From contig OX597841.1 of the NCBI GenBank assembly GCA_951406725.2, forward strand, positions 124,001 to 188,000: DNA of 64,000 nt, given 5' to 3'. A program made the translations under genes and the position numbers. Below, piece by piece: positions 21,309-59,327 of this stretch. The DNA is from Octopus vulgaris (Eukaryota). The notes beneath the pieces were generated by a model. It saw only the letters and a program-made list of their open reading frames with translations, had not been told where the DNA came from and made no database searches. Positions within the stretch are counted from its first letter, which is position 1. Every line of letters begins with the position of its first letter.

Positions 21309-22350
21309 TAAGTATGTATATCACCGTCACCGTGACCGACTAGGCTATCAGAAGTTGCAACACATCGCTGGTCACAATGCGCTTCGCATTGTTTTAGACT
21401 TTGAATGACGCCACCCCGCTGGCTAAGCGAGCAGGCCAACAGAAGAAAGAGTGAGAGAAAGTTATGGCGGAAGAGTAAAGCAGTGATCACCACCATCTTC
21501 TGCCGGACCTCGTGGAGCTTTAGTTGTTTTTCGCTCAATAAACACTCTCAACGCCCGGTCTGGGAATCGAAACCGCGATCCTACGACCGCGAGTTCGCTG
21601 CCCTAAGAACTGGGATATTGCGCCTCCACAAGTATATATATATATATATATATATATATATATATATATATATATATATATATAATATGTATATATATAT
21701 ATATGTATATTTTGAATAAATGGTCCCCTTACATATATACTTGGTGAAATTGATTAATAATTAATTATATATGAAATATATATATATATATATATATATA
21801 TATATATATATATATATATATATAAAATATATATAAATATATCCAAATATACATACATATTTGTACACACCTACATATATATGTATACATACATGCATAT
21901 ATGGATATAGGATATCCCCCCAAAATAGTTTAAACTCAATGACACACGATAACATAGAAAACGAACATTTTTCGAGCAACGAAATAACAGAGAAACGAGT
22001 ATTCGACTCCATCAGTTTTCCCTGATATATATATATATATATATATATATATATATATATATATATATATATACATATATATATATGTGTGTATATATAT
22101 ATATATGTATATATATATATATATATATATATATATATATATATATATATATATATATATATATATATATATATATATATATATATATATATATATATAT
22201 ATATATATATTACGGAGATGTACTCGCATAGCAAGTAATTTGATCTGAGATCGTGTGCTGAAACGAAAACAATTGCAGCGTGGAAGGTGTTTATAAGCCA
22301 TTTAAGAAACACACAAAAGCCGTTCGATTCACTCCAACATTTAAGTTTAA

Positions 22351-22400
22351 TTTGTCAAAATATTTTCGTTGCTAAAATCCGCGACCTGTTCACTGACAAA
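22351..22400 (-). ncRNA. G3-C8 hammerhead motif, copy 2 (one stem II mismatch)
   Basis: Reverse complement of 26760-26809, with GCAAC in place of GCGAC. Confidence 0.6.
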
Positions 22401-25400
22401 GTCCGTGCTGCATCTAAGAAAGTAACAGTTAGTTCGTCATATATATGTACGTATGTATGTGTGTATGTATGCATACATGTGTGTATGTACGTACGTATGC
22501 ATGTACGCACATACGCCTGTGTATGCATGTATGTATGTATGTATGTATGTATGTATATATGTATGTGTGTGTATAAGCACGCACATACACTCTATAAAAC
22601 ATAAAGCTATAAACCTGTAGCGATGGATAGATGTAGAGTGACCACTCATCACAACGCTATCAAATTTCAACTCCCTACGGCCGAGGCTAGAAAGTGAATT
22701 TATGACGCTTGCTCACAAGAACTATACCCTAAAATCTATTATCAGATTTTTATCTCTATATCACAGAACTAATGTTTTACTATTGTTCGTATGTATGTAT
22801 GTATGTGCGTATGTATGTATGTATGTATGTATGTATGTATGTATGTATGTATGTATGTATGTATGTATGTACATACGTACGCATGTGCGTATGTATGTAT
22901 ACGCGCTCGTATGCATGTGCCCATGTATGTGTGTGTGTACATGTACGTGTGTATGTACGTGTGTATGCCCATACGTAGGTATGTATGTTTGTATTCATGT
23001 ACTACGTATGTATGTGAGTGTCTAGGAGAATGGGCAGATGTGTCCGTGAGAGTGTGTACATGTGTATGTGTATGTGAACGTATGTCCGTGTACTGGCATG
23101 TGTCCGTCTAAGTTGTGTACATGACTGTTACTTTGCTGAAGGTTGTATACATATTTACATATATGTTTGTATAGACGCACACACATATATATATATGTGT
23201 GTGGGTGTGTGTTTGTTCCTCTCATCATCGTCTAACCGTGAATGGATACAACGCCTAGGTGCAACTGTTCGTATCAAACAACGTCTGCTCATACCGTTGT
23301 ATATAACTGCACATACGCATTGCAACCTGTATGTAAGGACTACAGGTGAAAGGGAGAGAGAGAGAGGGGTGGTTATAGAATAGTCCTTCTGAATGGGATC
23401 TGGATGTTATTCCATTCTGACTTTCGGTTGAGAGTAGGTTTGTATTCTTGTATACAAACAGCTTCTGTGACCTGTCTCAACATTGCATCGGTGGGATGTG
23501 TAGATAGGATGTTCAACTTAAGCTCCCCTAAGGATCCCTTGTGGCAGTCTACAGCATGTTGGTAGAAGATGGAGTTTGGCTTCCTTTCAATGTAGTTGTC
23601 CAGGTGTTCTTTGAACCTATCATTGATGCTTCTAGAGGTCTCACCTATGTATGACTCTGGGTTAGCCGCGCAAGCTCCCTCCTGGCAGTTAATCTGGTAT
23701 ACAGTGCCCTTGGTTTTACAATTTACGTGTGGATTTGTCGAACACACTGCACAATTACTCTGACAGGTGATTCTATCAAATGGATATGATCTGCATAATG
23801 CCGATTTGATAGTCCTACATGTCTTTTCTACAACTTTAACTTTTAGGCCCGTAGTGCGCAGGACTTTCTTGAATGCCTTACTTAGCTCGTTCTTAGGTGT
23901 GGCGTCAACGAACATCACTCCGTGAAATCTCCTGTTATCGTACCAAGTAACGTTTCTCATCTTTTTGTTGGTGTCCCTCTCTAACCTATTCCAGAACTTG
24001 TCGCGGTACAGGGGGCATATACCGTTTTCGTCGTTCCCTAGAATGCGTTCGAATCTAGCTTTCGCTCCTTTGTACACCCTGACTCTATCGTCTTGTGTGT
24101 ATCCGGAGCGTTGCATTCGGAATATGTAGTGCTGGATGTGTTGTTGTCGTTCTTGTGGTTGGCATAGTGGTGATACATTCCTCATTACTCTAACTAAGTC
24201 TGCCACTAGGATGTTGAGTTTGGCAGTATCCGACATAGCTGAGTCACTACGGATTACTAGTGGATTAGCCATCGGTTTCTGATAGTGTGAGTGGAGTATA
24301 CATAGTTTAATGGTACCATTAACCATAGCGTCTTCCATCCATAGCTCAGTATCTAGGACGGGTAATCGTTTACTGGGGTGTTTAGAGGGGTAGTCTATGG
24401 TAAGTTTTATACTGCTGTGGATAGAGTCAGCTATGTGTTGTATAGATGTCATCACCTGTTCTTCACTTGGTAGAGGGCCCATAACTGTGTCTGTATTACA
24501 TTTCACAACAAGGTTAATGTCGTCGACGTAACGAGAGTACATAGCCAAGTGGATGTTACGGTTTGCTAGGCACTGTTTAAAACGCTTGTCCCACCATACC
24601 ATGAAGAGGTTAGCAACGTCACCGGCGATCCCCACTCCAATAGCACCGCCTTTCGTTTGCTTATACAGCTTGTTGTCAAATTTAAAAATATGTGTTTTTA
24701 GCGTAAATTCTCAGGCTGACACCGATAGCATGTGCGATGGTGGTTCTAATATCGTGTGCACTTGAGGGTGGGTAGTCCGGCTTTGTCCATCCCTGCCAAC
24801 GCTCACAGTGAGTCTTCCTGTAAGCCGAGGTCATGGTAGGTGGTCTACCGCGTTTGTTACGGGTGGGACAAGCATATAGAATGTTATTGCGCGACAGGTA
24901 TTCATTGGTACACGTCAGGGCCAGGAAGAGCCGTAGTTCATATACATCCACATTCTTAAATATCATACCACTCTCACTAACTATTTCTATACATTTATCG
25001 ACAGCAAAGTCTACATCGATGGAGGGGTATAGTGATACCACATCCATGCTACCCACGATGTGGTTCTTGAGGTCACACGTGTTGTTGCATTCGCGGATCC
25101 TGCTAAGGAGGTCCTCAGTACTGTCACATACATCTGCAGATAGTTCTATTAACGGTCGTAGGAATTGTGAGAGAAAGTATGATATTTTGTGGTTGTTTGC
25201 ATTGTTGGCACCACAAACGGGTCGGGTGGGTGGCCCAAGTATATTGTCCGTGTGGCTCTTGTGATCTTTGCGAAGGCCATATAGGGGTGGGATTTCGTTG
25301 TTGGTGGTTAAGAAGTTGTTAGCTGTGCGCTTCTACGACTGGAGAATTATACTCCACATCCCCATGTGAGCATTGACGATCTTTTCGTTCTCGATATATT

Positions 25401-57621: not shown

Positions 57622-58007
57622 GTCATAGCGTAAATATGTTTCATTTTCCATTGCATTTCAACGCTCACTCCCGAAATATATCAATATTTTGCTATGGAAA
57701 TAGTGAAAAATTTGCAATTTAAAAGATGTTTATAAACATCTTTTAAATTTCATTTTCAAAACTTCTTTCGAATATATATATATACATATACATACATACA
57801 TATATATATATATATATATATATATATATGTATGTATGTATATGTATATATATATATTCGAAAGAAGTTTTGAAAATGAAATTTAAAAGATGTTTATAAA
57901 CATCTTTTAAATTGCAAATTTTTCACTATTTCCATAGCAAAATATTGATATATTTCGGGAGTGAGCGTTGAAATGCAATGGAAAATGAAACATATTTACG
58001 CTATGAC
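57622..58007. repeat. 386-bp spacerless palindrome centred on (TA)n
   Basis: gtcatag at 57622 pairs with ctatgac ending at 58007. C57799 pairs with G57830. The arms looked perfectly complementary on manual reading. Confidence 0.9.
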
Positions 58008-59276
58008 TCCTGTATGTAGGAGTATATATGTGTGTGTGTGTATGTATATGTGGGTATATATATATATATGTATATTTATTGGTGTATATGTATAGACTAG
58101 CCTCCTAAAGTGTAGACACGAATCTGTAGGTACGAGTACGTATGTGTATATACGTGAACGTATGTAGATGTTTGTATGTATGAATATAACGCGTGCGTAC
58201 GTGTATGTGTATGAGTGTACGAATGGGTGAATGTACGTGCTAATGAGTGTGCGTGCGGGAATGAGTACTTGCCTTCTAGTAGACAGACAAATGGACATGC
58301 AGCCATTGCCAGGATTCTTAGCTCTAGCGATCAAAGATAACAAAAGTAATAAATGAAGATAATAAAATTAAAATTAGGGAATGGGCCTGTATTGGATTGT
58401 ATATATATATATGTATACGTATATTTGTATGTATGTATGTGTGTATGTGTAGGTATGTATAGGTACACATGTGTATGTGTATGTGTATGTATATATGTGT
58501 GTATGTATGTATGTGCACACATGTATATATATGTATGCGTGTATATGTTTATATATATATATGTGTACATAGGTGTATGTGGGTGTATGTATATATAGGT
58601 GTAAATATGTGTATATAGGGAACTAGGTGTGTTGTGTGTGCATGAGTGTATGTGCGTATGAATATATATTTTTATGTGTATATATGTGTGTGTGGTCGTG
58701 GGTATATATATATATATATATATACATGTGTGTATGCGTGCATGCATGGGAGTGAGTGTATGCATATATACGTGTGTGTATGTGTAGACAGGTATAGGCA
58801 TGTGCATGTGTATAAATTTGTATATGTGGGCGGGTGTATGTATGTGTGTATGTAGATATGTATGTATGTGTGTATATATGTATATATGTATATATATATA
58901 TATATATATATATATGTGTATATATATGTGTGTGTATATATATGTGTATGTATGTATGTGTGTGTAGATACGTATACATGTGTGTATAGGTATAAGTGAG
59001 AATCTCCTTATTTACCTATAACTCTATCCCCCCATTTTTTTATATATATATTTTTATATATATATTTTTTTATATATATTTTTTATTTTTTTATTTTTTT
59101 ATTTTTTTATTTTTTTATTTTTTTATTTATCTATTCTTTCATCTAACTTACCACTGACTCCTTGACCACTCCCCCAAGTATGATATTTTGCGCTATGCCT
59201 ACCCCCAAAAAGTCCCCCACCACCACTCCTTTAAACCTGCCTAAATGTATAAATGCTAATACAATTCTTGTTAAAT

Positions 59277-59327
59277 AGCTTCCTGAAGATTTCTCTTGAA
59301 TGAAACAGTACTAGTCCTGTAGAAGCT
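59277..59327 (+). ncRNA. Type-I hammerhead motif
   Basis: AGCTTC-CTGAAGA-tTTCtcttGAAt-GAA-ACAG-tactagtc-CTGT-A-GAAGCT, with a GUA triplet. A G8U-mutated copy is at 53343-53393 (-). Confidence 0.72.

Follow-up and report, generated by a model that had tools for sequence, protein, structure and literature searches.

The 64,000-nt stretch of the Octopus vulgaris genome studied here (contig OX597841.1, positions 124,001-188,000 of assembly GCA_951406725.2; hereafter the window) has a G+C content of 37% and is rich in repeats and microsatellites, with long interspersed nuclear element (LINE) and Tc1/mariner remnants and an array of C2H2 zinc fingers. It also contains two copies of a coding Penelope-like element (PLE) and eight candidate type-I hammerhead ribozymes, which we name by their core starts: 22393(−), 26767(+) and 53734(−), together the G3-C8 family, after its pair at core positions 3 and 8; 31987(+); 59283(+) and 53387(−); 51057(−); and 35791(−). 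The original prediction, whose coordinates are the low ends of the motifs, had described at least five unrelated families, mostly in small non-coding modules bordered by TA runs, which would be Penelope-derived or retrozyme-like and perhaps mobilised by a reverse transcriptase (RT) with a GIY-YIG endonuclease encoded at the locus. We found that the G3-C8 motif is part of the 3′ repeat (pseudo-long terminal repeat, pLTR) of the RT/GIY-YIG element itself and no small non-coding module.

PLE copy 1, of the Neptune/Nematis type, occupies 22211-26888 (−) within a TA tract and consists of a tail, a 3′ pLTR with untranslated region (UTR), a broken RT-GIY-YIG open reading frame (ORF) and an inverted 5′ copy. 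The 60-nt tail (22211-22270, −) is found at this end only and, in alignment, is lacking from the inverted copy. The microsatellite-bearing 3′ UTR is 1.1 kb long, and about 150 nt before its end lies a G3-C8 hammerhead with one stem II mismatch (22351-22400, −). The ORF remnant (23373-25707, −) encodes RT and C-terminal GIY-YIG with DKSG, YVDD and CX3CxxC motifs; it is 5′-truncated and interrupted by one in-frame stop and one frameshift. The inverted copy of the 3′ end (25708-26888, +) is likewise 5′-truncated, terminates in (TA)n without the tail and is 99.5% identical to the 3′ pLTR of copy 1 (737 of 741 non-microsatellite columns). It carries an intact hammerhead (26760-26809, +) with a stem I of 7 bp, an extra G after A9, a stem II of 5 bp, a palindromic stem III and U17. 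Copy 2 (53552-56027, −) retains the tail and the 3′ pLTR, which is 96% identical to that of copy 1, is truncated in the RT and ends in an inverted RT piece (55813-56027); its hammerhead spans 53692-53741 (−), with G3 at 53734, C8 at 53729 and position 17 at 53699. In both copies the motif follows the RT/GIY-YIG stop at a distance of about 1 kb and in sense orientation, and it recurs in the inverted 5′ copy. A relationship of the motifs to Penelope, as proposed, is borne out for this family by its linkage to the PLE ORF.

The coding frame is a single ORF for RT and C-terminal GIY-YIG, broken in both copies. Its protein has 235 homologues, the best at 55%; the GIY-YIG Pfam match on copy 2 (E 2.8e-4) falls just under the Pfam cut-off, and copy 1 has no Pfam match. 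Atlas clusters are matched by the protein at 0.95-0.97, some of them carrying RVT_1 or GIY-YIG on 12-23% of their members. Residues C316, C320, C323, C342, H369, H385 and H390, which comprise a CX2-5CxxC linker and the Cys/His residues of the endonuclease, are invariant across 46 sequences. This linker, the inverted 5′-truncated copy, the tail at one end and the insertion into (TA)n are characters of endonuclease-bearing (EN+) PLEs. Canonical PLEs are reported to carry hammerheads universally and to show inverted copies, tails and a bias towards TA, and the CX2-5CxxC linker has been described for Neptune and Nematis (PMC8557442). With these two groups the octopus element shares the C-terminal GIY-YIG, the linker, a DKG-type motif, the inverted 5′ copy, the one-sided tail, (TA)n and a 3′ hammerhead; it differs in its tail of about 60 nt and its 3′ UTR of about 1.1 kb with microsatellites. 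In a tree of 18 RT/EN rows, built without labelled references, the element falls in an unresolved fork. It is an EN+ PLE of Neptune/Nematis type. Naiad was rejected, as its endonuclease is N-terminal, and so was the Hydra element, with a CxCX5C linker and no CCHH. A Terminon-like composite was likewise rejected: the window's tandem repeats include none of telomeric type, and the element has an endonuclease.

A loose type-I scan of the window gave 12 matches, including all eight motifs. A strict descriptor (at least 4 Watson-Crick pairs in stem I and at least 3 in stems II and III) recovered five motifs from four families (26767, 31987, 59283, 53734 and 51057), compared with a mean of 0.115 and a maximum of 2 in 200 local dinucleotide shuffles; a still stricter one retained four motifs against 0.02. 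Relaxed until 35791 was admitted, the descriptor gave 10 matches against 1.5 by chance. These descriptors were written after the motifs had been seen, and an initial, overly strict one missed every motif. A Watson-Crick 3-8 pair, three stems, a palindromic stem III and an NUH site are all present in 26767, 53734, 31987, 59283 and 51057 and are doubtful in 35791; two further motifs are damaged copies (22393, by the stem II mismatch, and 53387, by a change of G8 to U). The stems III are all short and self-complementary. Four unrelated type-I families with seven motifs are thus real, and the fifth, 35791 (35716 in the original prediction), is at chance level and unproven. The families are also unrelated in their stems, as had been claimed: outside the core there is no clear likeness, no pair that includes the G3-C8 family rises above shuffles, and low shuffle counts (2-14 of 300) occur only among the other, AT-rich families.

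Rfam Hammerhead_1 (RF00163) matched 50978-51063(−) at E 0.0012 and 23 bits, under the gathering score; for three other motifs, scanned singly, it returned no hammerhead even with E allowed up to 10. In a scan of the whole window, microsatellite matches dominate, with no hammerhead among the 150 of 244 matches listed. Co-folding predicted intermolecular stem III pairing for 31987, 59283 and 51057; for the G3-C8 copies no such stem III formed, and the predicted dimer exchanges stems I and II. The monomer fold of 26760-26809 has a z of −3.0.

The three other well-supported families have hammerheads ahead of a 3′ end inserted in TA, with TA within 200 nt. The 31987 insert (30548-32215, +), in a TA tract, is composed of a GT-rich 1.1 kb, a T-run, the hammerhead, 190 nt and (TA)n, has no ORF remnant and is presumably a truncated PLE 3′ end. 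Its hammerhead (31983-32026, +) has a canonical core, an extra base on either side of a 4-bp stem II, a palindromic stem III and a GUA site. A second presumed truncated 3′ end without ORF remnant (58008-59413, +) is built in a similar order from 1 kb of GT-rich sequence, a T-run, the hammerhead, some 90 nt and (TA)n; the hammerhead (59277-59327, +) combines a canonical core with a U-U mismatch at the base of stem II, a palindromic loop on stem III and a GUA site. Between two TA runs at 53340-53471 lies a 132-nt inverted-plus-direct copy of the 3′ end of this 59283 family, whose hammerhead (53341-53395, −), with G8 changed to U, is probably dead. The inverted arm stops about 20 nt past the cut site and the direct arm has a longer tail, so that the inverted-plus-tail anatomy of the G3-C8 element is repeated in miniature; among these three families, inversion and tail were seen in this one only. 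The inverted arm begins at the 5′ edge of its stem I. The 51057 insert (50936-51335, −), in a TA tract and of uncertain 5′ extent, contains a hammerhead (50978-51063, −, the Rfam match above) with a U4C core, a long stem II, a self-complementary stem III and a GUC site. The weak candidate 35791 (35716-35795, −) has a stem I of 4 bp with two G-U pairs, a long irregular stem II and no downstream TA run, and its surroundings showed no PLE-like ORF.

A TA run of at least 6 units lies within 200 nt downstream of seven of the eight motifs, against 17% of background positions, and six of the eight have at least 10 units; counted per family, by our own arithmetic, a run is nearby in four of five (p about 0.004). 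The sole exception is 35791, whose downstream run is 2260 nt away. The description of small TA-bordered non-coding modules is thus right about TA, wrong for the G3-C8 family, whose motif is part of a coding PLE's 3′ repeat, and loose as to size for 31987 and 59283, with inserts of about 1.7 and 1.4 kb. Self-comparison of the window revealed a unit at 59860-63678 which corresponds to 19774-22210 joined to 26889-28509 by an unbroken TA tract. Because this paralogue matches the flanks of copy 1 joined without the element, 22211-26888 is an insertion into TA; in the alignment, the empty-site tract at 61953-62107 contains none of the inserts. The 51057 and 31987 inserts each interrupt the TA tract in other copies of the unit, and empty paralogues for the 31987-family insert lie at 29060-29210 and 51520-51720. 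Members of three families (G3-C8, 31987 and 51057) were inserted into TA tracts, and since they occupy different paralogues of one tract and are absent from others, insertion post-dates duplication. The predicted insertion into (TA)n is upheld by these empty-site paralogues and by TA-rich loose ends of contigs described below.

The G3-C8 core was followed into related elements and public sequencing runs. From one metagenome scan with 34 related loci, we examined the 20 whose match reaches the protein end (14 were left out), searching 400 nt behind each ORF, and found a 3′ hammerhead in eight of the 20 versus one of 200 shuffled flanks. These eight have C3-G8 in six cases, U3-A8 in two and G3-C8 in none; all carry an extra base after position 9, which in seven is G as in the window, stem III is palindromic and several have U17. 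A MAFFT alignment of ten hammerheads places the core columns in register with the window motif; further 3′, the window rows are shifted by one column. The 3-8 pair is G-C in the octopus family against C-G (six loci) and U-A (two loci) in its relatives, a covariation which, like conservation of the core, was seen for the G3-C8 family only. Other core variants among the relatives are U15.1-A16.1 (L003:4969-5013), U3-A8 with C at 9 (L001:2493-2534) and G at 4 (L005:1679-1720).

Of 24 listed public runs, 20 contain the stretch 53552-53780; they come from 11 studies and represent four organism codes. For each organism, one run was aligned at 80% likeness (13079, 8310, 5768 and 3676 contigs). In these contigs no variant reaches 3% at G3 (53734), C8 (53729) or positions 4-7, 9, 13, 14, 15.1, 16.1 and 17; contigs lose rare variants, and a C3-G8 subfamily below 3% or below 80% likeness would escape. 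G12 and C11.1 show CpG decay of up to about 4% (G12 up to 3.2%), and a stem I change of A to G that keeps a G-U pair stands at 7-13%. The further listed changes in the motif are one at 53692 that is private to this copy, two in loop II and an insertion of a single base into the T-run of stem I; 17 variant rows fall in the 94 nt of 53593-53686. Contig loose ends reveal a subfamily with a different loop II, the same core and the same stem II 5′ arm. TA-rich loose ends at 53608 (33, 44 and 34 contigs in three runs) correspond to a second, tail-less end, as predicted by two RT start sites. Summed contig depth, lower over the core than downstream, is a sign of a large family only and gives no copy number. 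In these sequences, G3-C8 is the state typical of an abundant family of animal PLEs.

Several joints also fall where stem I begins on its 5′ side (53738-53741); one of these, from 53741 to 53684, has depths of 431 and 3227 in two runs. It could represent either a fixed inversion or a tandem hammerhead unit of 59 nt, and clipping at the variable 53742 may contribute; nothing else points to a short amplified derivative.

Much of this picture has precedents. PMC4209133 describes many unrelated hammerhead families per genome, mostly as single motifs of truncated PLEs and with opposite-strand pairs, as well as an extra base after A9, palindromic stems III and a natural U3-A8. Like those PLE pseudo-LTR hammerheads, the octopus motifs follow the type-I layout with G10.1-C11.1, a palindromic stem III and an unpaired base after A9, are flanked by U-rich (5′) and AU-rich (3′) sequence, and occur as many unrelated families, as single motifs of truncated copies and as opposite-strand pairs. 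They differ in the G3-C8 pair, as the available text of that paper has only C3-G8 and U3-A8, with no G3 among 56 aligned motifs, and in the extra base, which is G in the window and in seven of eight relatives where the published consensus is H. Natural core variants in PMC3088659 are U3-A8, U4C and U10.1-U11.1, and G3-C8 is absent from the text available. The identical swapped pair exists as an engineered variant of partial activity (C3G/G8C of the anole Poseidon PAc in PMC11167929; PMC3884650), whereas in the window it is a natural family state. Nothing on the variant stands in the accessible parts of PMC6765202 and PMC6155905, and our literature search returned no report of a natural G3-C8 hammerhead, though earlier work on PLE hammerhead variants may bear on novelty. 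The search likewise returned no report of octopus PLE hammerheads; a survey of 30 recently active Penelope families in Octopus vulgaris (PMC13282606) does not mention ribozymes in the portion available.

The setting is itself repetitive. From 19.7 to 64 kb, self-comparison shows a patchwork of duplicated blocks, 94-99% identical outside microsatellites, and part of the apparent insertion 'sink' is local duplication of one TA-rich unit. At 19774-64000 this multi-part unit (a piece resembling a short interspersed nuclear element (SINE), TA tracts, LINE and Tc1/mariner remnants) occurs in three to five copies with common breakpoints. An AT-rich block at 51123-51335, which meets the 51057 hammerhead at 51123, has two further copies without hammerhead (28511-28720 and 30161-30330). 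Directly 5′ of the 59283-family insert is a perfect 386-nt palindrome (57622-58007) with a TA run at its centre, built from a duplicate of the neighbouring 57246-57541; it may be a by-product of that insertion. The LINE remnant at 39253-41329 (−) has an RVT_1 match at E 1.8e-27 and a weak zf-RVT match, and 13176-16051 (+) contains long frameshifted reading frames of tandem C2H2 zinc fingers. An additional decayed hammerhead-like motif (6800-6865, −; core 6858) stands behind a degraded reading frame whose end, judged by eye, looks like the C-terminus of a GIY-YIG protein; for the upstream ORF pieces, Pfam and Atlas returned no match.

Very probably, the motifs are hammerheads from the 3′ pseudo-LTRs of endonuclease-bearing PLEs that belong to at least four distinct families, and insertion into (TA)n is driven by the RT/GIY-YIG of each family's own intact copies; for the 31987, 59283 and 51057 families we infer autonomous parents, as we do cleavage of the motifs. 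In such a scheme, intact copies elsewhere would make each family's RT/GIY-YIG, which would nick (TA)n DNA. Reverse transcription would be primed at either of two sites a little way behind the hammerhead, which differ in whether the tail of about 60 nt is included, and would mostly halt early, often finishing in an inverted second copy. Because synthesis stops early, most insertions would be short ORF-less pieces with the hammerhead 20-200 nt from a TA run. Several families would do so independently, each insertion leaving TA on both sides for the next one. The hammerheads with short palindromic stems III probably cut, by analogy, as dimers or with protein assistance, trimming tandem transcripts. 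The insertion anatomy is observed here; the biochemistry is that of PMC4209133 and PMC11167929, the latter describing two RT start sites and a protein-assisted hammerhead.

Several observations weigh against this reading. Twelve of the 20 related loci have no hammerhead, although two of these have less than 100 nt of flank and four are near-identical to each other, and a TA run of at least 5 units was found in just two of 34 related loci, both just behind the ORF, many of the contigs being short. The tail is 60 nt long, compared with 30-40 nt in the papers, and as monomers 31983-32026 and 59277-59327 fold no more stably than shuffled sequence. With a profile of 97 homologues from one subclade, no PLE ORF remnant was found adjoining 31987, 59283, 51057 or 35791, nor anywhere else in the window beyond the copies of the G3-C8 element; 31987, 51057 and 35791 are single-copy within the window.

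The families for which the window has no ORF, three in number, raise the question of whether some are true non-autonomous PLE derivatives, SINE-like or retrozyme-like, propagated as short units by the RT of another element. Such an origin would suit the 132-nt unit alone between TA runs and the joints at 53738-53741, the deep 53741-to-53684 joint fitting an amplified short unit, and a preprint argues for an origin of retrozymes from pLTRs (bioRxiv 10.64898/2026.07.22.740005). Non-LTR retrozymes, however, are head-to-tail units of 170-400 nt with a hammerhead in each and circular RNAs (PMC7229834; same preprint). The window motifs are like them in the type-I hammerhead, the non-coding, PLE-related nature and, for the 59283 family, the stem II U-U mismatch also known from an axolotl retrozyme, but none sits in a head-to-tail array: neither 109 tandem-repeat rows nor the self-comparison of the window contained one. 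Retrozyme-like or separate non-autonomous families were also part of the original prediction and are not supported, one of them being the element's own pLTR. Mobilisation by the local RT/GIY-YIG fares no better, with its ORF broken as described. The 3′ ends of the other families had no likeness to that of the G3-C8 element, so nothing links them to the local RT. The joints, moreover, may be clipping at polymorphic 53742, the high-depth joint is below 1% of local depth, and depth declines gradually toward the 5′ side with no sharp boundary. We regard a non-autonomous origin as distinctly unlikely, and still more improbable is clustering mainly through local segmental duplication of the TA-rich unit plus chance motif matches. 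The patchwork of near-identical blocks speaks for duplication, and for 35791, at chance level, this reading stands; for the other four families it is refuted by the excess of strict matches over shuffles, and the placement of different families in different paralogues of one TA tract means that these were inserted after duplication.

More serious, if still rather doubtful in our judgement, is that the G3-C8 motif no longer cuts, either as a descendant kept as an RT-bound fold or through a swap fixed by chance in one master copy. U17 cleavage sites are weak, and contig ends do not pile up at the cleavage site, though contigs cannot show RNA ends. G3-C8 rescues cleavage only in part, cleavage was dispensable for in vitro insertion of an anole PLE (PMC11167929), and minimal stems III are weak, with low activity reported (PMC4209133). 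Yet both letters changed together so that the 3-8 pair was retained, the relatives have two other Watson-Crick pairs there, the other catalytic positions have no variant at 3% or above bar the CpG position G12, and the subfamily with a different loop II retains the core and the stem II 5′ arm. A bolder idea, which we advance tentatively and from sequence comparison, is that a high-copy G3-C8 family common to several related species depends on a working swapped-core hammerhead. One PLE lineage would then display three natural 3-8 states, invisible to standard searches, and short fixed derivatives with their break at the 5′ margin of stem I may have started to multiply independently.

The overall system is known, its main pattern having been set out already in PMC4209133 and PMC8557442, so that 'little-described' was too strong a term; the new part is the natural G3-C8 core. 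The window offers filled and empty TA sites for three families, and descriptor and Rfam searches miss the whole abundant G3-C8 family. Whether PLE hammerheads are functional or passengers is a question on which cutting by this motif bears, and if it does cut, that would be evidence from nature that what selection preserves in PLEs is the pairing at 3-8, not the letters that form it.

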